From NCBI GenBank assembly GCA_963797555.1, contig CAWCPV010000003.1, positions 512,001 to 576,000 on the forward strand: a stretch of DNA of 64,000 nt. The letters are read 5' to 3'. Positions 551 to 19,149 of the stretch are shown here, in pieces. Each line of letters opens with the position of its first letter. The first letter of the stretch is position 1. Source of the stretch: an uncultured Gammaproteobacteria bacterium. GTDB taxonomy: Bacteria; Pseudomonadota; Gammaproteobacteria; CAWCPV01. The notes beneath the pieces were generated by a model. That model had not been told where the DNA came from. It saw only the letters and a program-made list of their open reading frames with translations, and did no database searches. A program made the position numbers and the translations under genes.

Positions 551-751
551 TGGTGGCGCCGCGACCCCGCTGGGCCGGAGGAACGCCGCGCGGGCAGAGC
601 TGAACCCATCCCCGCTTTGGCGCCAAGCGCGCCCCGTAGGCACACGTCCAGCCCACCGGCTCGGAGATCTCCATGCGGCGCGATGACTCATTGACGGTGC
701 AGGCGGGCGCGGATCTGCCCACGTCAACGGATAAGCGTCACAAGAGTGCTG

Positions 752-2799
752 TCAGTTCAACCCCAACGCCTTAAACGCCGCCTGGCGCATATCGCCGAAG
801 AACACCGGGTCGACCTGCTCCAGCACGTCCGCGTTGACTTCCAAAAACTGCCGCTTGTTCTCGATCGGGATGAGCGCCCGTTTGGCCCCGTTGTCCATGG
901 CGACCTGGAGCGGTTCGGTGAGGGAGCGCACGGGCTTGATGTTGCCCTGGATGCTCATGTCACCCAGGACCAGGAGCGCCGGCTGCGGGGGCGACTTACG
1001 CAGCGCGGAGTAGGCGGCAACGAAGAAGGCGACGCCGATCTCGGCCTCCACCTTGTTTCCGAGCAGGTCGATGACCTCGACGTGGAAGTCGGAGGTGTCG
1101 ACTTCCCGAGCGTACTCCGAACGCAGTCTTGTTCGCAGAGCAGGTAGCTGAAGGCCCTGGTCACGGACTCTTTCATCGCACCGCTAACGCCGCCCGCGAG
1201 CCTGAGCTTCCCGGTCCCGGACGACAAGGTGACCTCGACACGGTAGAGACCAACGGTGCCTTCTCCGCTCACGGATGCGGTATAGAGCGGTGCCGGGCGG
1301 CAGCGGGTCGGCGGAGATCAGGTCGCGACCACCCTGCTCAGGCACCCCGACGAACTTCTCCTCGCCGGTCTCGTTGACTTGGTAGCTGAACGAGGTCTGG
1401 TAGTACTCGAAGGAGCCCATCTTCTTGAGCTGCTCCTTCACCCGCCGGCGGCCTTCGATCGCGAACTGCAGGATCTCTTCGAGGTCGTCGCGCGAGACCT
1501 GGCCGTGCGGGATGGAGGATCTTCACCAGTCCCGGAGACGGTGCGGCGGACCGCCTTGCGATCGCGGGCGTTGAGGTGCGGCGCCGAGCGAAAAGTAGTG
1601 GTCGATGATCTCGGTGTAGTTGTGCTTGCGGAGGTCGCGCAGGGCCTCGGCGAGGTAGTCGACGACGAAGCCGTAGTGATCGGTGAAGTGCTCGTTGCGC
1701 ATCTTGGGCACTTCCCAGCCCGGCAGGTAGAAGTGCAGCCGGTCGATGAACGCCATGTCGTCGCGGATGACGTCGGGCAGTCGGCGCGAACAGGTGGCCG
1801 GTCTGCACCATCACGTCGACGGGCTGCTGGGTGTTGCCGAACATCGCGATGCTGGCGTAGCCGGCCATCGCCTCCTGGCCGCGCTGGAATTGGCCTGACT
1901 CGCAGTAGGTCTTCATCATGGTGATGACCTCCTTCGGCATCTTCTGGAGGTCGGCGACCTCGTCGAAGCCGATGGCATCCCAGATCTGGACCATGCCCTT
2001 GTAGCGGCCCTGCTGCTGCCCGAAGAGGTTGGCCACCGTCGTCGGGCCGGTGAGCAGCGCAGAGTAGGGGGAGAGCTCCTGCACCGCGTAGCTCTTGCCC
2101 GTTCCGCGAGGGCCCAGCTCGATGAGGTTGTAGTTGCGCTCGCAGAGCGGGATGAGCCGAGTGAGGAACAGCAGCTTGAGCCGCCGCTCCATCGACCGTT
2201 GGCTCGTAGCCCATGCTGCGCACCATGAAGTCGAGCCACTCGTCGGTGGTGAACTCGGCACGCAGCCGACGGTATTCGTCGAGATCGAAGGTCGCGAGCT
2301 GGATCGGGGTGAGCTTCTCGATCCAGAACGGGTACTTGCCCCTGGTCTCCTCGTCGTACTCGAAGCGCATGTCGATCTGCGCCCAGATGCCGCCGGTGAG
2401 AAGCCGGTCGAAGTCGCGCACGTAGTGGTCGGGGATGTGGACGTACTTGTGGCCGAAGTTCGTGACCTCCGCCCAGTACTGGGAGTCGACCAGGCGGACC
2501 TTCACCTTGTCGATGAAGGTGTGCCGGCCGTTCTCCTTGACCTTGCTCTGCGCCTTGGTACTCTCGTCCGGGCGGATGTAGTTGTCGGCCAGGGTGTCGT
2601 TGACCACCTGCAGCCCCATCTGGATCGCCATCTCGTCGGACGAGGCGCAGTACTTCCCGAGCAGGTACTCCAGCACGAACACCGGAACGTTCGCGCCGAC
2701 CTTGACCTTCCGCACCAGGTCCTTGCGGACGACCTTGCCGGCGAAGACGCGGTTGACCTTGTCGTCAAGGGAGTCGCGAGACGGGGCGGTTTCGGTCAT
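752..2799 (-). CDS. brxL: BREX Lon-like protein BrxL, several frameshifts
   Basis: N-terminus FAGKVVRKDL...GANVPVFVLEYLLGKYCAS; Walker A ELGPRGTGKS; AFIDRLHFYLPGWEVPKM; Lon-like C-terminus. Spread over ORFs 1438-2799, 1338-2261, 1523-1756, 1184-1441, 955-1272, 752-1051. Confidence 0.92.
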
Positions 2800-2845
2800 T
2801 GTTGGTTGGTCGTCAGTCGTTGGTCGTCAGTCGTCAGTGTCGGGA
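2800..2845. repeat. Heptamer array (GTCGTCA/GTCGTTG type) between four-helix gene and brxL
   Basis: ggtcgtcagtcgttggtcgtcagtcgtcagt. Confidence 0.85.
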
Positions 2846-3187
2846 TGACCGCAAGGCGTTGAGCATTCGACCCACGCCCGCGCAATCATCCATGATCAGA
2901 GCTAACGAGTCGTTCGGCAAAAAGCCCAACCGATGTGCCAGCTCCGCGTGGGTTTCCAATTCCATCAACGACCCGTACGCGATTGCACAGAAGCGCGTCA
3001 ACTCGGCATCTGTGCCTCGACCCCGTCCCTCGGCAATGCTCGACGGGACCGAGACTGCCGCACGGCGCATCTGGACGGTCAACCCGAACCGCTCATCCGG
3101 CGGGAAACTCTTCGTCGCTTCGTAGACATGTTCCGCAAGCAGCATCGCCTGCTCCCAGACCCGCAAGTCTCTATAGCCTTTGCTCAT
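2834..3187 (-). CDS. Four-helix-bundle protein (23S rRNA IVS protein / Avd-like family)
   Basis: YRDLRVWEQAM...FPPDERFGLTVQMRRAAVSVPSSIAEG...AYGSLMELETH signature. Confidence 0.93.
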   Translation of the reverse strand: MSKGYRDLRVWEQAMLLAEHVYEATKSFPPDERFGLTVQMRRAAVSVPSSIAEGRGRGTDAELTRFCAIAYGSLMELETHAELAHRLGFLPNDSLALIMDDCAGVGRMLNALRSSRH

Positions 3188-3370
3188 TGGCGGTCATCGG
3201 TCATCGGTCGTTGCCAAGGAATCGTCCGGCTGCCGCAGTCCTCCCGCTGACGACCGAAGACCGACGACCGGCGACTCTCCCTCCCTGACGACTGAAGACT
3301 GACGACCGACGACGCCCTGCGCCCTGCAGTCCTCCCGCTGACGACGGAAGACTGACCACCGACGATTCTC
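3188..3370. repeat. Heptamer arrays in both orientations between pglZ and four-helix gene
   Basis: ggtcatcggtcatcggtcg, then three blocks of ctgacgacygaagacygacgacc; cagtcctcccgctgacgac is duplicated. Confidence 0.85.
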
Positions 3371-3372
3371 GC

Positions 3373-5911
3373 TCATATCCCCAGCTTCACCGGCAGCTCA
3401 TCGGACTCGGCCAGCACCCCGTCCGTGCGAGCGTCGAGTACGACGACCCGGAGCGACTGGCAGGCGTCGTTGGTCAGCATCATGCCGACGCTCGCCTCGG
3501 CCCCCAGCGCCAGGGTGAGCGTGCCCTTCGAGCGGTCGAACTGTCCGCCGACCGCCATGCCCGCTCGACCGACCTCCTCCGCACCGGACATCAGCAGGAC
3601 CCGCAGCACGAGCGGCTCGGTGGCGAGCAGGTCACCCGCCGCGCCCAGCTTGAGGCCGAAGGTGCGGTTGGTCACCTTCGGCGGACAGCCCTCGATCCGG
3701 ACGTGCACGCCGGGCACTTCGGCCGGCTTGCCCGCCGCCATGCGCAGGCTGATGACCGGGACCGCCAGCTCCTGCAGGCTGAATCCGCCGTGATGGAAGC
3801 TCAGCCCCCCGCCCGCCTTGAATACCCCGAGCCCGGTCGGGAAGACGAAATCCAGATCCGTGTGGTAGCCGAGATCCGCCCCGGTCACCCGCACCGTGCC
3901 GGCCGGCGTGCTGCCCCCGTACCCGATCCAGCAGCGCCGGTGCAGGTCCAGGGTATCTCCGCCGGGGTTGTCGGTCTTCATGTCGTCGTCCTTGCGGATG
4001 GAGAACTGGTGACCGTGGTCGGCGGCGATGACGAAGTTCTCGATGCCCGCGGCGGCGAGCTTCTTCACCGCCCGCGCGAGGTTCCCGATGATGGCGTCCA
4101 TCACCTGCCGCGCCAGCAAGTCCCCGTCCATCTCCCCGACGAAGTCGATCTCCTGGGAACGGACCACGACCAACGATGCCTTGCCAATGTCCTTGGCAAC
4201 CTTGGACGGCGAGTTGCCGAGCAGCTTTCCCAGCGTCATCTCCACCACGTCCGGCACCTTGGCCTTGAGGAACTTGGTCCGTTCGTTCAGGCCCGGCATG
4301 TCCGTGCCCTCGATGCGCGCCGCGAGCCTTCCCTTGGCCTCCACCACGTCGAAGCTGGCCGAGGCCCCAGGCAGCAGCCCCGCCATGCCGACCGGCGTGA
4401 TGGACGGCAGCGCTGCGACCGCCGCCCGTACTGTGAGATCCTTCGCCCCTTCGATCTGGCGCGCCAGCTCCACGCCCATCTCGAAGCGCATGGCATCGAC
4501 GAAGAAATAGGCGACGCGGCCGCCCTTGGTCAGGACCACGTCGGAGTAGACGCGTGTCTGGTGCAGTGCCCGCGGCACGGTCCAGTGGGATTGTGGCAGC
4601 GCCTTGGCGAACCCGTCCGCCATCGCCCGCAGCAGGTGCTCGTGCTCGTGCCGGACCACCCCGAGCGCCTTCTCCGCCTCCGGCTCGTCGTCCATCTTGG
4701 CGACCCAGGTTTCCAGCCGCCGCTGCAAGGTGTCCGCCCTATGCCAGCCATCCTCGCCCGTATAGGCGGCGAACCACTTGGCCGGATCGCTCCCCATCTT
4801 GGTCAGCGCCGGGCGGATGCGCGCCAGCTCGCGCCCGAGCTCCGCCATCAGCCGGCAAGCCTCCCATTGGGCCTGACGCCGCACGTCGCGGTCCACCCAG
4901 AAGCTGTGACCGCGCTCGGTGATGACGTCCAACGCCGCGTCGTACTGCTTGTCGGCGACGAGCGCGCCCGCATGGCCGAGCAGCCGCTCCTCCTCGAACC
5001 GAAAGGTATCCACCGCACCCAGATGGACTGCATCCACATCTGCACTCGCGAGCCCGAGGTCCTGCTCCACCTTGTCGGCCAGCGCTACATAGGCATCTGG
5101 ATGGCGCCGTCGAAGGCCCTCCGCCACGTCGCGAATGCGCGCGGTCTGCTCCTTTCCGGGCACGCCGGGAACCATGCCGACGGACTTCGGGGGCTCGCAG
5201 GACAGATCGGCCCGGAACTCGTTGACCAACACGTAGCGCGAGGTCTTGTCGCGCGCCTCGGTCACTCCCGTGGCGTCCTGCAGCTCCAGACCCAGGCGGG
5301 CCCCGATCAGCTTGAGAAGCTCAGGGACAGCTTCCTTCTCGACCAAGGATGCGTCCTTCCCGTCGGAGGCGAACCACTCGGTAAGCAGCGCTTCGCCCTG
5401 GGCACCGCCGAACAGGCTGTGCAGCACCGACGCCACCTGGCCCCCTTCGCCCTGCGCCAAGAAGGCGACGATGTCGTCATAGGTCACCGACGCCGGCCGC
5501 AGCATGTCGTCGATCTGCCCGTCGGTGAAACGCTTGCGCAGCACATTCAGCGCCAGGCGCTTGAGCTGCGGCTCGTAGCAGGTGCCCGCCCTTTTCCAGC
5601 TCCATCAGCACCGAGCCCGCGCGGTCCCGTGCAACGCCCGGAAGATAGAGGATCAAGAGGTTCGGGCTTGTCCGCGGCCACGATGGGCTCGACCGCCGCA
5701 CGCAGGCCGAAGAAGGTTCCGTCGATAACGGGCCAGAAAGGCGGCTCGGTCTCCGATCGCTCACCCGTGGCAACACGCCGCCCTCTTGCGCTTCCAGCTC
5801 CCGGTCGAAGAACGGCTCGAACTCGCTCCGAGGGTCGTAAAAGACGACGACCGAGTGCTTCGCGAGAAGCTCGTCGAGGTGCTCGCAAAGGTAGTCGTGG
5901 AAGGGGTTCAC
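3373..5911 (-). CDS. pglZ: BREX PglZ-domain phosphatase, frameshifted near 5' end
   Basis: YFFVDAMRFEMG, ALPSITPVGMA, IAADHGH and HHGGFSLQE PglZ motifs; N-terminus in ORFs 5477-5911 and 5547-5888. Confidence 0.92.
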
Positions 5912-5954
5912 GGGGTTCGATGCTCGCGATTCGGGACCAGGGTTCAGAAAGGAA

Positions 5955-6188
5955 TCACTCGCCCAAGGCGTCGAGAAAGCGCCGGATCAGCTCGGGGTGA
6001 TAGTGGATGCCCGTTTGGAGGGCGCGTTCGAGAAATGGCCTAACCTCGGAGATCACTCCCTCCCGTTTCGCCTTGCCCAATAGACCAAGCGCCCCGGTTA
6101 CTCTCAGCCCCACCGCGAGCGCCATGCGCCGCCCCTTCCACTCGTCGATGCAGACTTGCCCAATACCCTCGTCGATCCGGTTATCCAT
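5955..6188 (-). pseudogene. DUF3368 PIN-like protein, N-terminal part deleted
   Basis: CIDEWKGRRMALAVGLRVTGALGLLGKAKREG matches only the C-terminal half of the full copy at 12324-12812. Confidence 0.75.
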
Positions 6189-6444
6189 GCCGAGCGAAAT
6201 CGATCTCTAGCTCCGCATCATCCGGCCGCAGATTGCTCATCGGAAACCCGATACGAGGCAGCGAGTAAAGAAAATCCACACGGCCCTTGCCACATAACTT
6301 GGCCGCTTGTCCGGAAGAGAGCTTACCCTGTTCGTAGAGCTGCGCCGCCAACAACAGACGAGCCTCATCGGCAAACTCCGCCGGGGACAAACCGAGGTTG
6401 ACGAGCACGTCATCGTCATAGTCGATGATTACTTGATGGGTCAT
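6181..6444 (-). CDS. UPF0175 family putative antitoxin
   Basis: EARLLLAAQLYEQGKLSSGQAAKLCGKGRVDFL. Confidence 0.88.
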   Translation of the reverse strand: MTHQVIIDYDDDVLVNLGLSPAEFADEARLLLAAQLYEQGKLSSGQAAKLCGKGRVDFLYSLPRIGFPMSNLRPDDAELEIDFARHG

Positions 6445-6560
6445 GTCAGGGTCCGGGGTTCAGGGGTCAGGGTTCGGTCGTGGGTCGTGGGTCCGTCAGT
6501 CGTCGGTCGTCGGTCGTCGGTCGTCGGTCGTCGGTCGTCGGTCGTCGGTCGTCGGTCGTC
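6445..6560. repeat. GGGTTCR-type heptamers followed by a perfect (GTCGTCG)8 tandem plus a partial ninth unit
   Basis: gtcgtcg tandem at 6499-6560; ggggttcaggggtcagggttcgg just upstream. Confidence 0.95.
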
Positions 6561-6641
6561 CGATAATAGCGCGTGCCGCGGCCTGCGCCGGTCCTGGTGA
6601 CCGAGCCGTCGGCGAGCAGGGCGCCGATGGCAGCGTGCCGG

Positions 6642-6917
6642 TCACTCACCGTCCCGTTCCTGGCCGCGCTCCAGCAAATCCAGGTCGGCTAGAATCTCGT
6701 CCGCGGTCTGCTGGAACGGCGTGACGCCGTATCTGCCAAGGGCATCGATGAACTCCGCGCGCGAGACCCCGGCGATCTCGGCGGCACGGCCCTGGCTGAT
6801 GCGCTCCAGCTCGTACCACTTCACGGCCGCGGCCATGCGCATCTCGCGAACGAACTCCTCGGGATCCTTGCGGACACTGGCCAGAACGCTGGGATCGATA
6901 TCGAAGGCTAGGTTCAT
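6642..6917 (-). CDS. UPF0175 family putative antitoxin
   Basis: EMRMAAAVKWYELERISQGRAAEIAGVSRAEFIDAL. Confidence 0.88.
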   Translation of the reverse strand: MNLAFDIDPSVLASVRKDPEEFVREMRMAAAVKWYELERISQGRAAEIAGVSRAEFIDALGRYGVTPFQQTADEILADLDLLERGQERDGE

Positions 6918-6997
6918 CGGGGGTTCCTCGGGTTCGGGGTTCAGTCGTCAGTCGTCAGTCGTCAGATGATAGCGAGTGCCGCGGTCTGGGTTCGGGG

Positions 6998-8335
6998 TCA
7001 GGGTTCGGCCTTCAGGAGTTCGGAGCTTGGGACGACCTCTGCTGAACCCTGACCCCTGGTGGACCCTGAACCTTGTACCCTTCTCCTCCCCGAACCCCGC
7101 ACCCTGGTCCCTGCCGGTGCGGGCGCCTCCAGGAGACTTTTCAGTGCATCCTTGACCGCGGCGGAGGTACGTTCGGCGATGAGTCGATCGATCTCATGTT
7201 GGGGGACCTTGCGGGGCGTCCACTTGCCGGGCTTCGCATTGAGCCCCGCGTCGTCGGTCTTCGGTCTTCGGTCGTCAGCAGAAGACGCCGACGACTGAGG
7301 ACTGACAACTGACGACTCCCCTGTCGACTGACGACTGAAGACTGACGCCTGACGACCGTCTTCCGGCTGACGCCTGACGACCGACGACTGATGACCCTTC
7401 TCCTCCCAGAATACGTCTTCCAGCCCATGCGCGATGGCGAGACTTCGATCCTTCGCGCACTTGGGCACGACCCGCTCGGGCCACAGGTGCATGGCGAGGT
7501 GCGCCCAGTCGTAGTCGCCGGCCACCAGCTTGTCCCAGCAGTCCTTGCACTCCCTCTGCCAGGCGCGGTGACGGGGCACCAGGCGCCACAGCGGCGAGAA
7601 GTTGATGATGACGCCGTCGTTGAGGTCCGGATTCCAGAGCGGAGCGACCCGGGCGACCTCCTCGCGGAAGGCACGCAGCTCCTCGACGAAGGTCTCCTGC
7701 TCCGCGATCTCCTTGCGCTGGCTCGCTGTCGGGTTGCCGCCGCCGTCCTGCACCAGGCCGCGTCAGCTTGCGCTCTTCGTGCTGGAGCTTGGGCGTCACG
7801 AAGTCGTTGAGGACCTGGTAGAAAGTGTCCTTGGTGAAGCGGTGGCAGTAGAGCCAGACCGAATAGCTTGCGCGACGGCGTGGTGAGCTGCCAGTAGATC
7901 GGCGCCTTGCGGCGGCTCTTGGAATAGCGCCGGATGTGCTCGGCGAAGAAGCTGCCGGCGAGCCAGCCCTGCAAGTCGTGGCCACGGGGGTCGAGGATCT
8001 CGGCGGCCTCCTGCCAGCGGGCGTCGGCGTCCTCGGCGAAGACGCATCGGAAGACCTGGCGTGCCCGGCCGGTGAGGTCGCGCCCATGGCCCGGGTCGTG
8101 CGACCAGGATGCCGTCCGCGGGGAAGTCGATGGGATAGCCGGGAGGCGGCCCCTCCAGCGGCAGCCCGTCGTCGCCCGTCAGCATGCCCGGCGAGCAGAC
8201 TGGCAGCGGATCGAAAGGCTCGGGCTCCACGGGCGCCGCCCGCTCGCCGGTGGCCAGCCGCAGGTCGAAGCGCCCCAATGCGACACCGACGAGCCAGTCC
8301 ATCAGCTCAGCGACGAGACCGGCGGGGTCGCTCAT
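6998..8335 (-). CDS. pglX: PglX C-terminal segment, frameshifted
   Basis: FFAEHIRRYSKSRRKAPIYWQL, WNPDLNDGVIINFSPL, GDYDWAHLAMHLWPERVVPKC...DRSLAIAHG; ATG overlaps the hicB stop (ATGA). Confidence 0.85.
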
Positions 8336-8568
8336 GCCACCTCGACCACCAGCCGGTGCCGGATGGCCGGCGCGGGCCGACCCAGCTTCTGCAGGCTCTC
8401 AAGGTGCAGGTCCAGCGCCTCGCAAGCGTGCGCGAAGGCCTCCGGAAGGGTGTCGCCGCTCGTGATGATCTCGGGGATATCCGGGAAGGTCACGCTGTAG
8501 GCCGGCTCCTGGGCCTCATAATCGACGGTGAAGACATAATCGCGATAGACATGGCGAGTGGTCATCAT
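8332..8568 (-). CDS. hicB: HicB-family antitoxin
   Basis: YSVTFPDIPEIITSGDTLPEAFAHACEALDLHL. Confidence 0.9.
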   Translation of the reverse strand: MMTTRHVYRDYVFTVDYEAQEPAYSVTFPDIPEIITSGDTLPEAFAHACEALDLHLESLQKLGRPAPAIRHRLVVEVA

Positions 8569-8801
8569 GGCTGCAGAAGCTCCAGAAGCTTACGAATGTC
8601 CGCGGGGTGGCAGTGAGCACGGCCGCCGTGGGGCCGCACCAGGGTCAGCAGCCGCCCGTCGGCGCGATGGTAGGTGCGGTGGCTGCCTCGGGCATTGAAG
8701 AGGACGAAGCCCTCGTAGCGCAGCAGCGCCTCGACCTCGGAGAACCGCACGGACCCGGGCGAGCGGCGCATGCGCTCGATGAGCTTCTCGCGTCGTGTCA
8801 A
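8565..8801 (-). CDS. hicA: HicA-family toxin
   Basis: VRFSEVEALLRYEGF...RGSHRTY...PH. Confidence 0.88.
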   Translation of the reverse strand: MTRREKLIERMRRSPGSVRFSEVEALLRYEGFVLFNARGSHRTYHRADGRLLTLVRPHGGRAHCHPADIRKLLELLQP

Positions 8802-9856
8802 TCCAACTCCTCCCCGGCATCCTCATCGCCCCCGTCCCCAAGCTCCGCAGAGGCCAGCGCCGCGGCCCGGTCGGCCGTGGAGAAGCCGTAAAGATCGAAG
8901 CAGCGCTCGTCGATCTCCGCCTGAATGCGGGCGAGCTCGCCCTCGGTCTCCGCGACCCGGTCCGCCCAGGCCGCCCAACGCTCGCGAAGCCTCGCGCCCC
9001 CGACCTGCAAGAGGGCCGGCAGCACGAAGGCGTGGGAGGTCTGGGTGCGGGTGTCGAGGGAGCGCTTGAGGGACCAGGCGCGGCGGGAGAGGGTGGCGAG
9101 TGCGTTGGGTCGTCGTCAGCGTCGTCGGTCGTCGGTCGTCGGTCGTCAGCGGGGGGACGGGCGTGCTGCTGGATACCCCGACTTCGTAGGACTGCGCCAG
9201 CTCGACCGCCAACTGAAGCTCGACCAGCGCCCGGAAGGGCGGCTGTTGACCACCGCGAGCAGCGCGAGCAGGGTCTCCGGGTCGTCGCCCTCGACGAAGG
9301 CGGCCGGCCCCTTGTCCGCGAAGATGCAGCCCGCCGGCATCGCGCGGATGGAGAGGCCATTGGTCCGCCGCGGCCAGGTGAGGCCGGGGCGGAAGAAGCA
9401 GTCGACGTTCCGGGCGTTGCGAGTCCACTGTCCAGGATCGTCCAAAGAAGCTCGAAGTAAGTCTTCCTTCTGTCGGCTCCCAGTCAACCAGCCAGATACA
9501 CGTCGGCGTAGAAAGGGCTGAGAGCTCCGCCCTTGGCAAAAGGCACACCAACGTCCCTTCCCACGCAGGTAGCCCGGTCTCCCAGACCAAGGCGCAGAAA
9601 TCGAAAATCGTCCGCGCGTCGCCAGTCCCAGACTTCGCGTGTCGCTGTCCGCTGTCCTCAAAGTGGTGGCAAGTGTAGGAACAGTTCCTCGACTTCGATC
9701 GCTTACCCAGTACGCAAACGGTGAGCGCGGCACGGCGCGAAAGGACTCTGGATCGACATCGAACCGCTCCGAATGCGGTCGGGCGTTCTGATCGCCGTCG
9801 CGCAGCGCCGCCGCCTTGTCCTCGGCCTCGATGACGCGGAAGAAGGTCGCCTTCAT
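8798..9856 (-). CDS. pglX: PglX middle segment (target-recognition region), frameshifted
   Basis: MKATFFRVIEAEDK, FRAVPRSPFAYWVS, FFRPGLTWPRRT...MPAGCIFADKGPAAF; ATG overlaps the upstream stop (ATGA). Confidence 0.8.
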
Positions 9857-12115
9857 GCGCCTGTTCCTGAACCCTGCACCCCGAACCCTAACCGACCCTC
9901 CAAGCAATACGCCGCCGCCTCGACCATCGCATCGTCCATCACCCCGTAGCCGAGATCGGCGACGACGACCGGCGGGGCCTCCTTGAGGAGGATCTCCTCG
10001 CGCCAGCGTTGGAAGGAGGACAAGAAGAAGCCGGTCCGGGAGGTGATGGCGCCGAGGCGGCTCCGCGGGTGCAGCAGCCTGATGCCTCGTTCCACGAAGG
10101 CCGCGTACATGTCGTTCTTCGTGCGCGGCCAGGCGGATGACGCCCAGGAACGCACGCCTTCCGGGAATGCCCCGAATGGCGGATTCATGAGTACTACGTC
10201 GAAACGCAGAAGGCACAAGTCGATGAAGCCGAGCCCTCGCGCGGCGTCCTCGCTGAACAGGCGCCGCTGATAGGCTCGACCGTTCGAGGCGTGCTCGGCG
10301 TACGCACGAAGCGCGCGAAGGACTTCCTGCTCCGCCCTCCGCCAGCGCTCCTCGTCGAGTGTGCGAAAAAGCGTCCCATGCTCGCCGTGGATCTCCCGCA
10401 CGGCGTCGCGGATATCCTCCTCGATGCGCAGCAGGGAGCCCGCCTCGCCGGCAAGCTCCATACGCTCGAAGACGCGCGCGACGAGCTTTGCGAGGTCGGG
10501 ATCGAGGGCCGCGAGGAACTCTCGCCGCAGATCCGGCTCCCCGGGCATGGGCTCGGCCACGACGATATTGGTCTTCCGGATGGCGCGGCGCTTGCTGCGG
10601 CGCGATGCCGAAATCCTGATAGGCCCGCTGCGCCCGCATCCAGAGCGCCAAGGCGGCGATCTGCGCACAGCGGGCGTCGATGTCGATGCCGTGGAGGTTG
10701 TGCCTAAGGATGAGTCCCGGCAAGGCCAGGCGCAGGGCGTCGAGGTCCGGGTAGTCGTCGCGCAGGCGGCGCCCCGTCACCTCGGAGGCGGGCGAGTCCG
10801 AATCGGCCCAGGCCTCCTCGTAGATGACGAGCAGCAGGTCGAAGGCATAGAGCAGGAAGTGCCCCGATCCGCAGGCGGGGTCGAGGATCTTGAGGTCGCG
10901 GGGGTCTTTCTTCGGTCTTCGGTCGTCAGCGAATGCGTCGCCGGTCTTCAGTCGTCGGTCGTCAGCGGATGCGTCGTCTGTCTTCAGGCGTCTGTCATCA
11001 GCCGAGGAGTCTCCTGCTGACGACTGATGACTGACGACTGACGACACTTCCCCCGACGACTGACGACCGACGACTGACGACTGCTCCCCCGACGACTCTT
11101 CCCGCACCAGATAGTCCAGCTCACGGAGCCTGGTCTTGCCTTGCCGCATCTCGTACCAGATGCGTCCCAGCGTGTTGTCCGTGAGGAACTGGACCACATA
11201 GCGGGGGGTAAAGAACTGGTTCCGCACCGCAAGCTCGCGGGTGTTGCGCGGCGCCTGGCTTTCCGCGCGCATCTGCCGGCGCTCTTCGTCGCCGTTGAAG
11301 TACTGGTAGACCCAGCCGATGGTTTCGTCGAGCTGCCAGATGGTCGTCGGTCTTCGGTCATCGGTCGTCGGCCCCGGTCCTCCTGCCGACGACTGAAGAC
11401 TGACGACTGATGACAATCCCTCATCGTTCAGGATCCCCAACAGCTCCGCCAACGCCTGCCTCCGCGGCCACAGCAGGCTCGCCGGATCGCGCCGGTCGAA
11501 CAGCACCCGCACCTCGCGGCCGATTTCGTCGAACAGGCTCTCGATGTAGAGCCGGTAGCCGTGGTCCGGGAGTTGTACCAACCCCGGTGCCAGGCCGCAG
11601 AACTCCTTGAAGCCGGAGGATTGCTCGCCCCGGGAGATGCACTCCTGCACCAGCCCGCGAGCCTCGAGCATCTTCAGCGCCACGAACCGGTTCAGCGTGG
11701 TGAAGGCCGCCTCGCGCCGGAAGGCTGCAACTGCTTCGGAATAGTCATCAGTCGTCGGCCGTCTGTCGTCTTGGGGGAAGTCGTCAGTCGTCAGTCGTCG
11801 GTCGTCAGCGGTTCCATCGTCGGTTGTCGGTCGTCGCTCATCGGCGGGGGTGAGTTTGCTGACGACTGAAGGCCGATGACCGAAGACTGCCGACCGATGA
11901 CTGACGACCGACGACACCGCGTGCTCCACTGCGGCTACCAGCTTGCTCCGCACGACCCGCTGCGCCGCATCCAGATGGCTGCCAGGCTCGGCAGCGATGG
12001 TCCCGTCCAAGCGGATGTCGAAGACACCCTCCAATTGCTCCGCGAACTCCCGCTCCAGCAGCGCTCTGGCAGCCTGAGTAGCCTTTTGGATGCGGTTGCG
12101 GGTTTCTTTGTCCAT
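9853..12115 (-). CDS. pglX: PglX adenine methyltransferase, N-terminal catalytic segment (one frameshift near 10600)
   Basis: AFTTLNRFVALKMLEAR, IGWVYQYFN, NQFFTPRYVVQFL, motif I ILDPACGSGHFL, motif IV DVVLMNPPF. Confidence 0.92.
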
Positions 12116-12323
12116 TTGTCAGGGTGGGGTCGAGCGTGATAGTGCTCGGAATCACATGGGTTTGACTATTTGCACATAAGTACGCTCGCGGGCGAAAAAT
12201 TTACGGTCGCGATCATAAATTCGGCCTGCGCTTCTAGGCAGTGCCTCTGCCCTTGCGGCAGAGGTATAAGATGTCCGGCGCTGTCCTAGGCTCGCCTGAT
12301 AACACCTGAAACCCCGAACCCTG

Positions 12324-12812
12324 CTATTCACCGACCTCGCTCAACAGCCGCCGAACCAATTCGTCGGACGCGTACAAGCCAGTTGCAAGCAACCGTCTGA
12401 CGACCGGCTCCGCCCAATCAATCAATCCCCTTGCCTTCGCGCGCCCGACGATTCCCAGTGTGCCGATGACCGCCAAGCCCATGGCCATCGCACAGCGGCG
12501 ACCTTCGCGGTCGTCGATGACGACTCGCTCCGCGTGATGCGCAAGCGCATGGGCAATGACCTGGGTTTCGCCAGCACCCAAGTCCCAGCTAAGAATCTCT
12601 GGGGCTGCGCCCACGTCTTCGACGATGACAAAGGCCGGGGCGTGTGAGATCCCTTTGAGGATTGTGCGACCGTCGGGCTTGGCGCCCACCTCCTCCGCAA
12701 CGGACCTCGGAACGTCGACCCGTTCGGCCATTTTGCCCAGTAGCCCGAGGGTTGCCGCCTTGCCGAGCAAGATCAGCGGCGAGGCGTTAACGACCCAGCG
12801 CTTAGACTCCAT
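12324..12812 (-). CDS. DUF3368 PIN-like putative toxin
   Basis: WVVNASPLILLGK...LGAGETQVI...IDDREGRRCA...GTLGIV. Confidence 0.88.
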   Translation of the reverse strand: MESKRWVVNASPLILLGKAATLGLLGKMAERVDVPRSVAEEVGAKPDGRTILKGISHAPAFVIVEDVGAAPEILSWDLGAGETQVIAHALAHHAERVVIDDREGRRCAMAMGLAVIGTLGIVGRAKARGLIDWAEPVVRRLLATGLYASDELVRRLLSEVGE

Positions 12813-13056
12813 GGATCTCGTCCGCCAACTCGTCGGGTGCGACCTGGCAGGCCGGGACCTTGCGCCGGTAAAGCTCATCCAGGAACTCGGCTCTTGTCAG
12901 GTCAGCAAGCTCCGCCGCCTTTCCCTGAGACACGATCCCCTGCGCATACCATTGCACCGCCGCGGCGATTCGCATCTCGCGGGCAAATTCGGCGGGCGCC
13001 AGCCGGAGAGCACCGAATGCCGAGGCGTCGAAGTCGAAGCTGATCGTAGTGGTCAT
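12802..13056 (-). CDS. UPF0175 family putative antitoxin
   Basis: EMRIAAAVQWYAQGIVSQGKAAELADLTRAEFL. Confidence 0.88.
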   Translation of the reverse strand: MTTTISFDFDASAFGALRLAPAEFAREMRIAAAVQWYAQGIVSQGKAAELADLTRAEFLDELYRRKVPACQVAPDELADEIHGV

Positions 13057-13141
13057 GAGTCACCTCAAGGTTCTGGGGGCTGGGTACAGGGTGCAGCAGG
13101 AGTCGGCGGAAGGCCAGCTCCTGAACCCCGAACCCTGCACC

Positions 13142-16100
13142 CTACTGCACCAACACCTTCTTGCCCGCGGCGATCAGCTCCAGGCACTGCTCCTTCAGCC
13201 CGCCGAGCGCCTGATCGAGCTGTTCCTCGTTCTCCACGCCGCCGGCGAAATAGCTCGACGCGGAGACTTTCACCACGCGGCTGCCGTCGATGACGCGCAT
13301 CAGTTCCTCGATGGCCTTGTCCCGGCGCACGGGACAGGCGTCGAGGTCGGCGCGGAGCTGCGGTATGGACGGGTTGGTTGCCTTGGCGACGGTGTAGGCG
13401 GCCAGCGGCTCGGCGATACGGTCGCGGTGCTCCTCGCCGACCTGCTGCCAGCCGGGCGTTCCGCGAAGCTGCTGGAGAGCGGTTTCGTATGCCTGGACAC
13501 GTGCATCCAATGCCTGGTCCAGCCGGGCCTGGTAGGCGTCCTCCAGCGCTTTGGTGTGCTGGTCGATGGCCGGAAGCTCGCGATAGAAGGACTCTCGGGC
13601 CATCAGGTCCGCGAGCTTGTCAGCGTGCTCCCGATCGTTGTCGCCGAGGTCCGGCTCGTGTTGCAGGAAGGGCCCGGTGCTGTCGAGTACCTTGCGCGCC
13701 CGGCCGAGGTCGTGAAGCGCGGTTTCCGTCAGGGCGTTGGCGAGCTCCGCGCCGCGTTTGATGGCTTCCTTGAGCTCCTGGTGGCAAGCAGTGAATGCCT
13801 TCAGCGCCTGGCAGTCCCGCTGGCGGCGAAAGCCGACGATGTTGCTCAATGCCGTCTCCAGGATCTCGGCCCCCGGTAGGGCATGCTTGTCGAGCTGGGC
13901 GGCAACAGCGCGCAGGGTCTCCTCGTGCGCCTCCGTGGTCTCGCGGATGGTCTGGGCGATGACATTTTCCTCGTACTCCTGGATTTCTTTGCCGAAGCAG
14001 GTCTTGTAGGCTTCGCCGGCCTCGACGTAGTCCGCGAACTCGCAGTCGGTCGCGCGCGGGCGGAACGAGGCCTGGCGGAACAGGTTGTTGTTGGTGAAGG
14101 TGGTGCGCGCCTCCAGGGAGAGGGCGGACTCGATGACCTGGCCCTTGCTGGTCGCCTCGATCTTGCCGGCGCGCAGCAGCGCGATGACGAGCAGGCGAAC
14201 AACGTCGAAGTCCCAGCCGAAGGGTTCCTTGGCGAATTCGTCGGTCAGATAGCGGCCGCTGGCGACCTCGCCATAGCTGGTGCGGTTCTGATGCGTGCGA
14301 GCACCTCGGCGAGCGACGCCGCTCTCGACGTTGAAGACGGGTTTGCCGCCCTGGTCGCGCACCAGGCCGAGATCGGTGTAGACGGGTGTCAGTCCGCGCA
14401 GGTTCTCGGTGGTCAGAAGAGAATCGAGGTCGTGCTTGTTGACGCGGGCGGCGGCCTCCTCGAAGCGGTCGAAGACCTCTGGCAGGGCCTGAGACAGGAC
14501 CTTCGAGGCAGTCCTCGATACCTCGCTCGCCCCTTCCTCCGGGCTGCGGTCGTTGCCCCGGAAGAAGATGGTGCCGTTCAGCAGGGACTGCTTGATCAGG
14601 CGCCGCAGCTCGTCCTGGTGGCGGCGTTGCCTGAGCTTCTCCTCCGCGACCAGGGCGGTCTCGTCCTTGGTCTGGGCGCCGCGTTCCTTGCGGGACAGGA
14701 TCTCCCTGGAGCGAAAGATCTCGACGGTTTCACGGTCGATCGCATCGCCGAGGGCGGCAACCCAGAAGACGGCCTTGGTCTCCGTCTGGCTGCGCCTGCG
14801 GAGATCCTCGACTTGTTCGTCGTACTCGCTCCCCGCCTCGGCGAGGGTCAGGTGGAAGGGAATGTCCCCGTCGACCGTCAACCGCCCCCCGAGGTAAAGA
14901 CCCGCCTTGAAGAGCTTGACGTCGAGCAGACTGTGGGACGGTTGCGGCTGCCACAGGGCGGTGACGATCTCGGCGTGCAAGCGGCTGGTATCGCCTGGCT
15001 TGGGGGACAGACTGGAGCGCTGGCGTTCCCAGTCGTCTTCCGCGGGGGTGGGAATACGGTAGCCGTCGTCTCCGCGGCGGACCATGAGACCCTTCTCCAA
15101 GGCGTCCAGGGCCTGGCGGACCTCGGCAAGGCGCGAATCGGCATCGACGGCTGGGTGGAGCGCGGCGGCGATGTTCTCGGGCGTGCGGTGAATGCTGCGG
15201 ACGTATTGCAGCAGGCAGATCGCCTTGGCGACGGGCTGGGCGAGCGGGTGGGCGATCTTGGTACCGATGTCGGCGATCTTGCCGCGGATCTCGCTGCCGA
15301 TGTTCCCGGAGACGAGGTCGTAGATCTGATCGACCCGTGCGAGCTTCCCGACGGGCTCGTCGGCCAAGTCCACATCGGGATGGATGAGCAACTGCTGGGC
15401 GAGCTTGATGATGGTGCGGTTCGCGCCGCCGACGTGCCTGCTCGCACCGGCCTGGGTACGCAGGCCGGAGACGATCTGGATGATGAGGTCGATCTGGTAA
15501 GGGAGCAGCGGGTAGAGGTCGATGAAAGACTCGGTCGACAGCTCCGGAAGCTTGATGTCCGCCGTGATGCGGGTGTTGTCGGTCAGCCGCCCGCGGTGCT
15601 GGGTGAACAGCTCGCGGAGCAGCTTCTCCGCCGCAGCGTTCTTGGAGAGCACGCGCTTGCTGGTGACCTCGGAGATGTCCGACGGCTCCAGGTGCACCTG
15701 AAGCGGGAAACGGTCCATCAGACGCGCAAGCTCGACGCGGCGGTCGTCGAGGCCGCCGACCAGCTCCGTGAGCTTCTCCTGGGAGGTGACGACCACCCAC
15801 ATCTTGCCACGGCCGAGGCGCCCGAGGTTCTGCACGACGGCCTGGAGGTCGAGCATCTTCTGCACGTCGCGGGCGACGAACTGGCCGACCTCGTCCACCA
15901 CGAACAGCAGTGTCTTGCCGGGTCGGCGGCGCGACATGAGATTCAGTCCCCGTGCGGCGAGATCGCCGGGGGTGATGTCCGCGCGCTTCATGGCCGACTC
16001 GCGCCAACTGTCCACCGTCGCATAAGTGGCAGGGTCCAGCTCGTGCATCACGCGGCTCGCCTGCTGGACGGCGATGGCGATCTTGCCCTTCTCGAAGTCC

Positions 16101-16675
16101 CAGTCCTTGTCGAAGATCTGCCGATACTTGGCCTTGAAGGCGTCGAGGCGACCTTCCTCCTCCAGCGTGATCTCCAGCTCGGAAAGGTCCAGATCCCGCG
16201 CGTACCCCAGGCTCTGAAGGAAGAGCCGGTACATGATCTCGGTGATGCTCTGATTGCCGGTGCGGATGCCGCGGTCGGTGGAGACGTCGAAGATGACGGC
16301 CTCGGTGGGGATCTGCTCGGCGATGTTGCTCAGCAGGACCTGAATCTTCGGATCATGACAGCGCTGGGCGAGCAGCTCGCCGGCGCCCTGCCCCAGGATG
16401 TCCCGGTTGGCGAGGGCGAGCCCGAGGTACTTGGCGAAGCTGGACTTCCCGGAGCCGAAGAAGCCCGAAACCCAGACGGCGATGCCCTCGTTGGGTTTCC
16501 GCCAAGTGGTTTGGTAGTGGTCGAAGACTTCGCGGAAATGCGTGCGGATCGAGTCGGTGACGACATACTCGGCCAGCTCATCGCGGATGATCTGCTGGTC
16601 GGCTTGGTCGACCTTGATGACTTCCTCGATGCGCCGTTCGATGTCGCTGGCGAAAAGGTCTTTGATTGTGGGCAT
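13142..16675 (-). CDS. brxC: BREX P-loop ATPase BrxC
   Basis: 1177 aa; WVSGFFGSGKS Walker A, FVVDEVGQF Walker B, VVVTSQE, YPLLPYQ. Confidence 0.95.
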   Translation of the reverse strand: MPTIKDLFASDIERRIEEVIKVDQADQQIIRDELAEYVVTDSIRTHFREVFDHYQTTWRKPNEGIAVWVSGFFGSGKSSFAKYLGLALANRDILGQGAGELLAQRCHDPKIQVLLSNIAEQIPTEAVIFDVSTDRGIRTGNQSITEIMYRLFLQSLGYARDLDLSELEITLEEEGRLDAFKAKYRQIFDKDWDFEKGKIAIAVQQASRVMHELDPATYATVDSWRESAMKRADITPGDLAARGLNLMSRRRPGKTLLFVVDEVGQFVARDVQKMLDLQAVVQNLGRLGRGKMWVVVTSQEKLTELVGGLDDRRVELARLMDRFPLQVHLEPSDISEVTSKRVLSKNAAAEKLLRELFTQHRGRLTDNTRITADIKLPELSTESFIDLYPLLPYQIDLIIQIVSGLRTQAGASRHVGGANRTIIKLAQQLLIHPDVDLADEPVGKLARVDQIYDLVSGNIGSEIRGKIADIGTKIAHPLAQPVAKAICLLQYVRSIHRTPENIAAALHPAVDADSRLAEVRQALDALEKGLMVRRGDDGYRIPTPAEDDWERQRSSLSPKPGDTSRLHAEIVTALWQPQPSHSLLDVKLFKAGLYLGGRLTVDGDIPFHLTLAEAGSEYDEQVEDLRRRSQTETKAVFWVAALGDAIDRETVEIFRSREILSRKERGAQTKDETALVAEEKLRQRRHQDELRRLIKQSLLNGTIFFRGNDRSPEEGASEVSRTASKVLSQALPEVFDRFEEAAARVNKHDLDSLLTTENLRGLTPVYTDLGLVRDQGGKPVFNVESGVARRGARTHQNRTSYGEVASGRYLTDEFAKEPFGWDFDVVRLLVIALLRAGKIEATSKGQVIESALSLEARTTFTNNNLFRQASFRPRATDCEFADYVEAGEAYKTCFGKEIQEYEENVIAQTIRETTEAHEETLRAVAAQLDKHALPGAEILETALSNIVGFRRQRDCQALKAFTACHQELKEAIKRGAELANALTETALHDLGRARKVLDSTGPFLQHEPDLGDNDREHADKLADLMARESFYRELPAIDQHTKALEDAYQARLDQALDARVQAYETALQQLRGTPGWQQVGEEHRDRIAEPLAAYTVAKATNPSIPQLRADLDACPVRRDKAIEELMRVIDGSRVVKVSASSYFAGGVENEEQLDQALGGLKEQCLELIAAGKKVLVQ

Positions 16676-16699
16676 CGGTCGTCAGTCGTTGGTCGTCGG

Positions 16700-16929
16700 C
16701 GAGGGGTAACTGGTTCTTGTGTCGTTCGGCGGTAACGAAGAGCGCAGGGCATTGAGCATTCGGGCCACTTCTGCGCAGTCGTTCATGATCGACGAAAGGG
16801 ACAGCGCCGCATCTGGCCCGTCAGACCAAAACGCTCGTCCTGCGGGAAACCTTTCGTCGCTTCGTAGACATGTTCCGCAAGTGTCATCGCTTGGTGCCAA
16901 ACACGCAAGTCTCCGAAACCTGCGCTTAT
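16700..16929 (-). pseudogene. Second four-helix-bundle gene, internally deleted, ATA in place of ATG
   Basis: Hand translation: AGFGDLRVWHQAMTLAEHVYEATKGFPQDERFGLTGQMRR jumps to SIMNDCAEVARMLNALRSS; close paralogue of 2834-3187; heptamer arrays at 16675-16700 and 16930-16990. Confidence 0.85.
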
Positions 16930-16992
16930 TTCTGTTCAGTCTTCGGTCTCCGGCATATTCTCCCGCGGCGACTGACGACTGACGACATCCTC

Positions 16993-17572
16993 TCAAAAAA
17001 TCCTCGGCCGGTAGTTGTGCTCGGCGTCCAGAACGCCCATGAAGCGCAGGCCGGCGGCACCATCGAGATCACCCGGGTAGAACAGGACGGCGGGGACGTG
17101 CACCTTGCCCTTGAGCTGCTCCAGCAACGCGGAGGTGCGGTACATGGGGAAGAGCGCACCCGCGCGCACGATGAATACCACGTCGCGCTGCGGGTCGGCG
17201 TCCTCCGGGATGCGGCGCGCGACCAGCTCGTCCAGGGGTTGGTACTCGCTCAGGATCTGGAAGACGGTCTCGACCGTCGCTTCGAGGCCCACGGATCTTC
17301 TCCGCGTCGACCAGCGCCTCGGGCCCCATGCCTTCCGCCTCCAGAGCCTCGCTGAGGCATTCGGCGAGGGAGATAGTCGTCACCCGTTTGCCCGTCTGCT
17401 CCAGCCGCGTGCGCAGGAGCGCGACTTCCTGGCGGACCGAAAATTCCTCTTCCGGCGGGTAGCGGAAGATGGCGTAGGGCATGTCGTGGTAGGCGCTGAT
17501 CTGCTGCCTGGGGTCCGGCCGCTTCAGCGCCGGTTCGAGCTGCTGAGTGAGGCGTTCCCTCCAATCGGACAT
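16993..17572 (-). CDS. brxB: BREX BrxB (DUF1788), one frameshift near 17290
   Basis: ISAYHDMPYAIFRYPPEEEF; LFYPG...LRFMGVLDAEHNYR; position between brxA and brxC. Confidence 0.88.
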
Positions 17573-18351: not shown

Positions 18352-18353
18352 GC

Positions 18354-18902: not shown

Positions 18903-19110
18903 CGGTCCATCTTCGTTGGTCTGATTTCGCTTGAACATCATCGGATGCCAGAACGCAACCGATGACCGCAGAAATCATAGTACCAACCGGGACCTTCTGG
19001 CAGGTGGCTCGGACGGGACCGTTCGGCCCCCACCCATTGGGCGCAATTACACAGAAGTTACACGAACCAAAGGATACTTGCAGGTTATTTCCACAAGCCT
19101 TTGTTTATAT

Positions 19111-19149
19111 TGGTGGGCCTGGCAGGATTCGAACCTGCGACCAAGGGAT
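19111..19149 (-). tRNA. 3' half of a tRNA (probably Ile2-CAT), att-site-like remnant
   Basis: Reverse complement ATCCCTTGGTCGCAGGTTCGAATCCTGCCAGGCCCACCA has T-arm, acceptor strand and CCA; no D-arm or anticodon upstream. Confidence 0.85.

Follow-up and report, generated by a model that had tools for sequence, protein, structure and literature searches.

A stretch of 64,000 nucleotides from an uncultured gammaproteobacterium (C3:512001-576000 of a metagenome-assembled genome (MAG)), referred to here as the window, contains a bacteriophage exclusion (BREX) operon that is interspersed with tandem arrays of 7-nucleotide (nt) units. The operon belongs to type 1 BREX, in a lineage that purple sulfur bacteria also carry, and its heptamer hairpins are long-standing residents. 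Two of the arrays enclose genes of the four-helix family PF05635, the 23S rRNA intervening sequence (IVS) protein family; this is the anatomy of an rRNA IVS bearing an open reading frame (ORF), placed in mRNA. At least five ORF-less hairpins are situated in pglX; four of these keep the reading frame, contain no stop and code for disordered loops at sites that recur. Comparison with related loci shows that the elements are inherited with the operon and kept regular, and that they vary in length and unit family at fixed sites with no spread through the host genome. The explanation that we prefer, to which we give about an even chance, is that of self-maintaining hairpin repeats, some with an IVS-type four-helix gene, that were inherited with the BREX lineage and filtered to junctions and in-frame loops.

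The locus is an unusually dense and tractable case, with two gene-bearing cassettes, several in-frame hairpins in the well-studied enzyme PglX and two repeat families. Thiocapsa imhoffii DSM 21303 and Lamprocystis purpurea DSM 4197, both culturable, have the same elements. A mechanism is called for by the presence of regular arrays at a synonymous divergence of ~0.9, by their confinement to BREX in most genomes checked, and by the occurrence of different units in the same loops.

Arrays and four-helix cassettes at the junctions

Two heptamer families occur at the BREX junctions, as the original prediction, made from the letters of this stretch, had claimed, and they are far above chance. GTCKTCR dimers with at most one mismatch give 69 matches in the window against 0.51 expected, and 68 of the 69 are within 2809-16986; for GGGKTCR dimers with at most two mismatches the numbers are 26 against 10.1, with 21 of the 26 within 5933-13142. 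Tandem Repeats Finder (TRF) detected no arrays of GTCGTCR or GGGTTCR units elsewhere in the window, again in agreement with what had been proposed. Arrays are found at all four junctions from brxB to brxL, as claimed, but they are not confined to junctions, since hairpins also lie within pglX. The clean division of the two families by gene type, in which GTCGTCR was assigned to the four-helix genes and GGGTTCR to the UPF0175 and DUF3368 genes, does not hold either, because GTCGTCR also flanks UPF0175 genes at 6474-6560 (12 units) and 6941-6965.

Uniform abundance across the genome had been named beforehand as telling against the prediction, and it was not observed. All 14 exact genome-wide arrays of at least three GTC[GTA]TC[AGT] units are located in the BREX locus, as are 22 of the 32 arrays of at least two units. 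TRF finds 57 period-7 arrays in the genome, 20 of them in these 14 kb of BREX. Five adjoin the only other full PF05635 gene and two are within a second PglX-like gene on contig C16, in both cases with the unit GTGACCA/CCACTGG; the remaining 30 are scattered, low-scoring singles. The arrays of the operon are inverted pairs restricted to the BREX locus, not copies dispersed over the genome. No Rfam family matches within 1-20000 of the window, and none of five terminator-like sites coincides with an array. A role of the arrays as intrinsic terminators is ruled out, as no T-tail follows any arm.

The junction between pglZ and brxL contains the expected four-helix gene in intact form (2834-3187, minus strand; Pfam E 5.6e-35), with a PF05635 score of 120.2 bits against a cut-off of 33.8 and a match that covers profile positions 1-106. 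The upstream arms of this cassette (3188-3372), which were delineated by TRF, by the inverted repeats I10, I16, I19 and I25 and by folding, comprise three GTCGTCR blocks and an inner hairpin, and their loops hold GGGAGG-type motifs. The downstream arm (2794-2838; TRF, fold) is of the TGACGAC type on the mRNA and ends 10 nt short of the brxL ATG. Folding of the junction RNA (2785-3380) gives a z-score of -4.15 and predicts an outer stem that encloses the four-helix ORF. In both the minimum free energy and the centroid folds, the upstream GUCGUCR blocks pair with a downstream CUGACGAC block, and an inner hairpin without an ORF is formed upstream. The predicted fold supports the suggestion that complementary arrays form hairpins on the mRNA.

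The junction between brxB and brxC is filled as well (16676-17068, minus strand, 396 nt). TRF identifies a small GTCGTCR hairpin at 16939-16986 and a right arm at 16675-16699 that abuts the brxC start. Between them lies a decayed four-helix gene (~16730-16935), the pseudogene recognised earlier, which matches PF05635 only at positions 2-38, has an internal deletion and retains the C-terminal 22 residues; the sequence and BLASTP indicate that its start codon is lost. Enrichment of heptamers near the small gene families had also been anticipated for the genome as a whole. This is observed for the four-helix genes, as period-7 inverted arms are present at all three PF05635 genes of the genome, but not for UPF0175/DUF3368, whose three other places in the genome have no array.

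An ORF-bearing IVS of 23S rRNA is known from Coxiella burnetii S23p (PMC4990558, available in excerpt). Like the 23S rRNA IVSs of Leptospira and C. burnetii, the BREX cassette has a PF05635-family ORF in the loop of a long stem with inverted flanks, is situated inside a transcript and is not an insertion sequence (IS); an ORF-enclosing stem is predicted for the pglZ/brxL cassette. This is in contrast to the rRNA elements in three respects: the BREX element is located not in 23S rRNA but in the mRNA of an operon, between or within protein genes, its stems consist of tandem heptamer arrays, and ORF-less copies are present in frame within a protein gene. The family PF05635 became known in the 1990s through the rRNA intervening sequences; it is very large, and we know of no established function for it.

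The family is related to Avd, the accessory protein of diversity-generating retroelements (DGRs), according to the accessible part of PMC10053308. The window protein shares the four-helix fold family with Avd (PF22296) and gives a weak bAvd match (E 3.7e-4, below the cut-off), whereas the BREX locus has no reverse transcriptase, template repeat or variable repeat. The stretch C3:47600-48400 of the same genome is probably a DGR: it contains a weakly PF05635/bAvd-like ORF, free of period-7 arms, followed by a C-type-lectin-like stretch of the form GGSWNNN...NARCAYRN.

Heptanucleotide tandem repeats are familiar from cyanobacteria as short tandemly repeated repetitive (STRR) sequences. Direct repeats of the heptamer TAACTGA were reported upstream of start codons in Beggiatoaceae and Thiocystis violascens, with 169 sets in one genome (PMC4679880); the portion of this paper that is accessible makes no mention of S23, four helix or intervening sequence. 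The BREX arrays resemble the TAACTGA repeats of that portion in having tandem, TGA-containing 7-nt units in spacers right before start codons of Chromatiaceae-related hosts. They differ from TAACTGA and STRR repeats, which are direct and genome-wide, in that they are inverted pairs of a single locus and are also intragenic. A literature search of main texts, covering few subscription journals, found no paper that links PF05635 genes to heptamer arms or to BREX.

Inheritance of the elements with the operon

BREX loci of relatives were collected by a scan for BrxC in one genome per species, which provided 68 loci (L-numbers). They include those of the cultured isolates T. imhoffii DSM 21303 (L009, genome G042) and L. 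purpurea DSM 4197 (L011, genome G041, 6.9 Mb). The closest BrxC proteins, with 84-90% identity, belong to loci labelled Chromatiaceae or Gammaproteobacteria, and the same BrxC clade at 70-77% identity bears labels from many phyla. Class-level relatives have a BrxC match in only 4 of 40 cases, none of which is close; one of the four, G039, is an unpublished genome and supports none of the conclusions.

The comparison with these loci reveals an empty state of 5-124 nt, relative to which the junctions of the window are filled, as had been supposed. The brxB/brxC junction is 89-124 nt long in 11 of 13 measured loci, compared with 396 nt in the window; the brxC/pglX junction is 6-23 nt in 28 of 50 loci and 1029 nt in the window, and the pglZ/brxL junction 5-42 nt in 21 of 22 loci and 576 nt in the window. 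The junction that holds the four-helix cassette varies, being brxB/brxC in L014, brxC/pglX in L022 and L044, and pglZ/brxL in the window and in L. purpurea. In the closest BREX loci, arrays of the same families recur at matching junctions and PglX loop sites, and almost exclusively within BREX.

Of the 68 loci, 25 have period-7 arrays, and most of these belong to the Chromatiaceae-like group. There are 59 such arrays in the 755 kb inside BREX versus 7 in 296 kb of flanking sequence (one-sided binomial p 5e-4, with loci that are not independent), and three of the seven border four-helix genes outside the operon. Scans of the whole genomes of five relatives for GTCKTCR x3 place 23 of 24 hits on the BREX contig in L. 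purpurea and 3 of 3 in BREX in genome G044. GGGTTCR x3 is located in BREX in 6 of 6 cases in T. imhoffii, 5 of 5 in G045 and 31 of 42 in G043. The restriction of arrays to BREX in hosts of the lineage is strong, not absolute.

The GTCGTCR unit itself is widespread. GTCGTCR x4 was found in at least 120 metagenome stretches; among the 80 loci listed, none has a core BREX gene and seven have a four-helix match, and among the 88 arrays listed, 20 are accompanied by an inverted partner no more than 1.2 kb away, 55 are unpaired over that distance and 13 meet a contig end. The metagenome contigs are short, and the hidden Markov model (HMM) used there for four-helix genes is narrow. The notion that GTCGTCR arrays are BREX-specific in general is ruled out by the 80 loci; what is special is their confinement to the operon in hosts of this BREX lineage.

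L. purpurea has an orthologous four-helix gene at the same pglZ/brxL junction, with 81% amino acid (aa) identity, a synonymous divergence (dS) of 0.88 and a ratio of nonsynonymous to synonymous divergence (dN/dS) of 0.15, on par with the value of 0.149 for BrxC. Its arms are of GTCGTCR type and arranged differently, with a hairpin on either side of the gene. These values identify the four-helix cassette as an old, selected resident that co-diverged with the operon, and the recent colonisation implied by the original prediction has to be abandoned. Neutral sequence would lose regular repeats at such divergence, and hence the arrays are actively kept regular. Their length is variable, and at brxB/brxC it ranges from 2.6 to 45 units across loci. 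Very long arrays occupy this junction at L014:9684-9996, with 45 units of CCGAACC beside a four-helix gene, and at L058:9839-9999, with 22 units of GACCGAC in a MAG that has no four-helix gene anywhere.

The earlier proposal had been of a non-IS insertion system with the four-helix protein as the cognate factor of the arrays. In a dedicated system of this type, the protein would recognise its cognate arrays, as DNA or RNA, and drive insertion or local copying, and the ORF-less hairpins would be non-autonomous derivatives, comparable to MITEs (miniature inverted-repeat transposable elements) in their relation to IS elements. The filled junctions, the varying cassette sites and the inverted arms at every PF05635 gene of the genome are consistent with such a system, and so are the purifying selection on the four-helix gene and the loops of ORF-less hairpins, which retain a GGGAGG-type motif resembling that upstream of the four-helix ATG. 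Furthermore, in each of two loci a four-helix gene is accompanied by nearby ORF-less hairpins built from the unit of that locus (GTCGTCR in BREX, GTGACCA/CCACTGG at C3:139-142.5 kb). The part of the proposal that ties the arrays to the protein fares worse. Arrays can exist where no four-helix gene is resident: none is present on the G045 BREX contig or in the whole G044 genome, although both BREX loci have arrays, and none is present in the assembled part of the array-bearing BREX locus of T. imhoffii, whose contig starts at brxC and leaves brxB/brxC unseen. No four-helix gene corresponds to the GGGTTCR arrays of the window.

Nor does the type of unit vary with the similarity of the proteins. 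The GTCGTCR-armed genes from metagenomes encode proteins only 33-43% identical to that of the window, while a relative of 59% identity (L014) has GGGTTCG arms, and the 50%-identical relatives of the window protein have GCCAGTT or GTGACCA arms. A model in which the unit family tracks the four-helix clade fitted the BREX loci alone and failed when the metagenome cassettes were added. The low share of four-helix matches and the many unpartnered arrays in the metagenome sample, with its short contigs and narrow HMM, also weigh against an insertion system, as does the lack of spread of GTCGTCR-type arrays beyond the locus in any host scanned. No site-specific recombinase, such as would adjoin an integron-type cassette array, is present within 2800-16990, as noted previously, and the flanks contain only a DDE transposase fragment and an ISL3 transposase. 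Altogether, we consider a dedicated insertion system unlikely.

Hairpins within pglX and maintenance of the arrays

The N-terminal half of pglX (9853-12115, minus strand), which encodes the methyltransferase, was identified by an MmeI_Mtase match and by tblastn with the PglX proteins of L016 and L011. A single frame runs through three in-frame GTCGTCR hairpins, E1, E2 and E3, and one frame change is located near 10600. E1 (11744-11915, loop site 1; fold -81.8 kcal/mol, z -4.4) is flanked on both sides by conserved PglX sequence. E2 (11342-11414, loop site 2) is placed by alignment and has a fold z of -3.0, and E3 (10908-11097, loop site 3; -119.2 kcal/mol, z -7.7) precedes the DPACGSGHF motif. 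All three are predicted to form near-perfect stems. These palindromic insertions are stop-free in frame and would be translated as part of the protein. In an AlphaFold model of the N-terminal half, the mean predicted local distance difference test (pLDDT) score is 74.8, and values below 50 are found at residues 80-102, 242-253 and 345-396, that is, inside the E1, E2 and E3 insertions; a further low-confidence coil is a native loop (288-299). The N-terminal half stops at a TGA inside a GGGTTCR-type array (9866-9893), and this TGA overlaps the ATG of the C-terminal half (ATGA, 9853-9856).

The C-terminal half (6998-9856, minus strand), recognised by tblastn with PglX-C of L011 and others, has frame changes at ~8113, 7872 and 7760 and is truncated by a TGA in a GGGTTCR-type hairpin at ~7000. 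It contains the fourth in-frame GTCGTCR hairpin, E5 (7250-7395; fold z -2.8), which adds 171 nt; the flanking matches are both in frame 2, 57 codons apart. E4 (9109-9148; TRF), a GACGAC-type array, places an in-frame TGA in the homology-supported frame, such that the frame-2 ORF ends at 9146, inside the frame-2 match to PglX-C of L011. After the GGGTTCR-type hairpin (6980-7125) at the rearranged 3' end come a duplicated end-piece (...RGTRYH) and an arm of TGACGAC x3 (6941-6965). The displaced C-terminal tail of PglX (...ALLADGSVTRTGAGRGTRYY; 6551-6667, minus strand) was located by tblastn, in which the final 30-40 residues of six PglX homologues matched it. This true tail sits downstream of a UPF0175 gene, gene b, and the 3' end of pglX is therefore rearranged around that gene.

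Alignment of 42 PglX N-terminal halves reveals that all 42 are stop-free. Array-encoded residues are present in eight of them, at three recurrent sites, and 34 have no array. Site 1 is occupied in the window and L011 by GTCGTCR and in L019 by GCAGAAG; site 2 in the window by GTCGTCR and in L053, L009, L013 and L022 by the GGGTTCR type; and site 3 in the window, L011 and L039 by GTCGTCR. The pglX ORFs of the isolates are open through the hairpins, with 1613 aa in T. imhoffii and 728+902 aa in L. purpurea. In the right-arm units of open segments, the stop-prone phase is CGA and never TGA (12 of 12), while the other two phases have T in 22 of 39. This codon-phase bias restates the open frames and is no independent test of them, but it shows how openness arises. 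Metagenome contigs from one DNA run (share 0.06), mostly from other organisms with 85-95% likeness, weakly point to the empty states: some of them join 12115 to 13143, corresponding to an empty brxC/pglX junction, or skip E3.

PglX is split at the same point in L011, L020 and L022, which makes the split a feature of the lineage. In L014, L024, L025 and L069, the distance from the pglX start to the pglZ start is 7.6-9.6 kb, and 3-5 kb of extra genes lie between the PglX halves; the split point is thus also a cargo site in the lineage. With its in-frame repeat insertions and split points, PglX of this lineage would be called a pseudogene or low-complexity sequence by annotation pipelines. Rickettsia palindromic elements (RPE) are in-frame palindromic repeats in protein genes that are translated as extra surface segments. 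The BREX hairpins resemble them as palindromic in-frame insertions in protein genes, whereas RPE are fixed in sequence and dispersed, and the BREX hairpins have variable heptamer numbers and belong to one operon.

Hairpins of this kind are also found in other defence-methylase loci of the same genome. On C16 at ~103.2 kb (L084:8200-8420), a second PglX-like methyltransferase gene, with a weak MmeI_Mtase match, contains a CCACTGG-type heptamer hairpin that directly precedes an LDPCMGSGHF motif, the same protein site as E3; a BrxC-like gene is situated ~4 kb upstream. Another such locus, outside the window, is C3:139309-141972 (L083:2810-5473, minus strand), where an 887-aa ORF for an N6_N4 DNA methylase spans a whole PF05635 cassette in another frame. 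It passes through the cassette for 158 codons without a stop, a state reached by 17 of 20000 composition-matched shuffles, and the alternative frames of eight other four-helix genes have at least one stop in 16 of 16 cases. The same methylase ORF contains an in-frame ORF-less hairpin with the unit GTGACCA/CCACTGG. ParE-like, HigB-like and UvrD-helicase ORFs are present nearby.

These loci raise the question whether the elements are an adaptive feature of defence methyltransferases, in which disordered loops or RNA stems are selected in PglX-type genes, for example by tuning expression after transfer or by varying surfaces bound by phage inhibitors. Different unit families hit the same three PglX sites across loci, the second PglX-like gene has its hairpin at the site-3 equivalent, and the third methylase reads through an entire four-helix cassette, all of which would fit. 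Recurrent sites are, however, equally expected if loops alone tolerate insertions, and most of the aligned PglX N-terminal halves are array-free. We find an adaptive feature of this type improbable.

The arrays might alternatively serve as contingency loci for phase variation, where gain or loss of 7-nt units would switch pglX or the translational coupling at junctions and make BREX expression reversible. BREX/Pgl systems are phase-variable in other bacteria, and 7 nt is not a multiple of 3. Orthologous arrays differ in length, with 1 versus 12 units after pglX in addition to the range at brxB/brxC, and metagenome contigs of relatives also differ, for example by a 37-nt step back at 3281-3317. 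On the other hand, none of the 42 PglX N-terminal halves is out of frame, in consensus assemblies where minority states are invisible, the frame changes of the window lie away from the arrays, and paired arms would have to change jointly to preserve a stem. Phase variation is accordingly given little credence here.

In the preferred reading of self-maintaining hairpin repeats, the arrays would be maintained by replication slippage together with arm-to-arm or array-to-array conversion, and a dedicated recombinase would not be required. Selection would purge out-of-frame or stop-bearing copies from pglX. The long stems on the polycistronic mRNA may act as processing or translation-coupling signals, possibly as RNase III-type substrates, and the TGA-containing arms would terminate translation in all frames right before the next start codon. 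A putative effect of the hairpins on mRNA processing or translation coupling is likely.

Several observations weigh against this reading. Slippage alone leaves the origin of the inverted partner arms unexplained, and it can account neither for three unit families at the same PglX sites across loci nor for the clustering of the genome's period-7 arrays in three defence-methylase loci. The locus at C3:139-142.5 kb, with its own four-helix gene and ORF-less hairpins of its own unit, hints at a local relationship between protein and repeat, which the preferred reading does not require. In L. purpurea, only 1 of 12 GGGTTCR x3 arrays is on the BREX contig, and 11 of 12 are on other contigs. Finally, the TGA of E4 and the frameshifts in pglX, pglZ and brxL may mean that the operon is dead and that selection on the frame is over.

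A more speculative proposal is that four-helix cassettes and ORF-less hairpins constitute a cis-spreading repeat system, which would act within a few kb of its source, settle preferentially in defence methyltransferase genes (PglX and relatives), and write in-frame disordered loops and all-frame stop/restart signals. We regard this as a doubtful possibility. If true, such a system would shape BREX expression or surface and represent a new class of element with a role in phage defence.

Accessory genes and layout of the operon

The putative toxin-antitoxin (TA) genes of the junctions are of the UPF0175 and DUF3368 families. At the brxC/pglX junction, an ORF-less GGGTTCR-type hairpin (13060-13145; TRF 13120-13143, dimer matches) begins at the brxC stop codon. 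It is followed by the UPF0175 antitoxin-like gene a (12802-13056, minus strand; PF03683, E 4.3e-24) and an overlapping DUF3368 gene of PIN-like toxin type (12324-12878, minus strand; PF11848, E 6.8e-12), and Pfam thereby confirms the pair predicted at this junction. Downstream of pglX, UPF0175 gene b (6642-6917, minus strand; PF03683, E 6.8e-26) has no toxin partner, while its homologue in L053, which is 82% identical, has a DUF3368 gene after it. An array block at 6445-6560, with CGACGAC x12 followed by GGGTTCR-type units (TRF 6474-6560, 12.3 copies, score 144), ends at the start of UPF0175 gene c (6181-6444, minus strand; PF03683, E 2e-19), which is 84-89% identical to those of L010 and L053. 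The DUF3368 partner of gene c is a remnant of the C-terminal 73 residues (5955-6188, minus strand; PF11848, E 1.9e-12) that corresponds in alignment to the C-terminal end of the complete gene in L010. An adjacent or overlapping UPF0175-DUF3368 pair is hence present as pair a, with a truncated toxin gene in pair c and gene b unpartnered. The two UPF0175 genes and the remnant expected between pglX and pglZ do exist there; that gene b simply lies in the junction is incorrect, given that the tail of PglX is downstream of it. The dN/dS values of UPF0175 genes versus relatives are 0.055 for gene c and 0.09.

UPF0175/DUF3368 genes, placed in the relatives by tblastn, are found after pglX in L010, L047, L053, L057, L067 and L071, and clear arrays accompany them only in L010. 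L053, L047 and L067 have the same genes after pglX with no arrays. L071 and L057 retain one lone TGACGAC at the stop codon of pglX; in L057 the UPF0175 gene is followed, in addition, by a degenerate array of short length. One unit in these relatives versus 12 in the window shows growth or shrinkage in place. The view of the TA genes as array cargo is contradicted by relatives that hold the same genes at the same junction without arrays, an outcome that had been named beforehand as refuting the prediction, as well as by the array-free copies elsewhere in the genome. The BREX lineage has conserved these TA genes as accessory genes, around which arrays are gained and lost.

The source genome is a 5.35-Mb MAG of 20 contigs with 84.6% completeness and 65% G+C, and the locus is no different from the genome in G+C content. 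The operon occupies the minus strand from 18941 to ~755 of the window and is assigned to type 1 BREX by the order brxA-brxB-brxC-pglX-pglZ-brxL on a single strand, with Pfam matches to BrxA, BrxC domains, MmeI_Mtase, PglZ, BrxL_N and BrxL_ATPase; brxB is assigned by position and homology. This core order with embedded extra genes is the one given in a survey of type 1 BREX (PMC12839542, main text in part), and the accessible main text makes no mention of four-helix, DUF3368, UPF0175, tandem repeat or split. The operon opens with a conserved upstream ORF that has no Pfam match. It is flanked by mfd (1-603) on one side and by a DDE transposase fragment (19209-19811) and an ISL3 transposase gene (24951-26084) on the other.

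The genes brxA (17572-18351; PF08849 BrxA, E 7.8e-21), brxB (17069-17572; no Pfam match, with a homologous ORF at the same position in related BREX loci) and brxC (13142-16675; 1177 aa, DUF6079 and BrxC wHTH/helical Pfam matches), all on the minus strand, have intact frames. The frames of the core genes were judged by tblastn against the array-free locus L016 (PglX 1441, PglZ 846 and BrxL 678 aa) and the closest PglX (L011). By this measure pglX has at least four frame changes and an in-frame stop. One frame change, near 5590, is present in pglZ (3373-5911, minus strand; PF08665, tblastn with L016 PglZ), the GTG start of which sits in a GGGTTCR-type remnant (5910-5950). The gene brxL (755-2799, minus strand; BrxL_N and BrxL_ATPase Pfam matches, tblastn with L016 BrxL) lies in three frames, with changes near 2193 and 1781. 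ORFs as long as 1572 aa are intact in the remainder of the window.

The frame changes in pglX, pglZ and brxL represent either real decay or assembly error. Since the MAG is incomplete and divided into 20 contigs, an assembly artefact could be suspected of the arrays as well; the same arrays are found in the same places in both isolate genomes (T. imhoffii and L. purpurea) as well as in numerous independent MAGs, which leaves this suspicion with a negligible probability. For the arrays it is ruled out by the isolate genomes; it may apply to the single-base frame changes alone. We also note that mfd (window 1-603 and upstream, C3:508872-512601) reads 944 aa to an in-frame stop and then 298 aa in the same frame. 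Either a real nonsense mutation or a fault of the assembly would explain this stop, which matters for the trust to be placed in the BREX frame changes. The genes rpoB and rpoC were sought as a gauge of the frameshift rate, and neither was found in the 84.6%-complete MAG. The spacer between the DUF3368 gene and pglX (12116-12323) has a lower G+C content, and its sole promoter-like match (12116-12143) points against the operon, on the plus strand.

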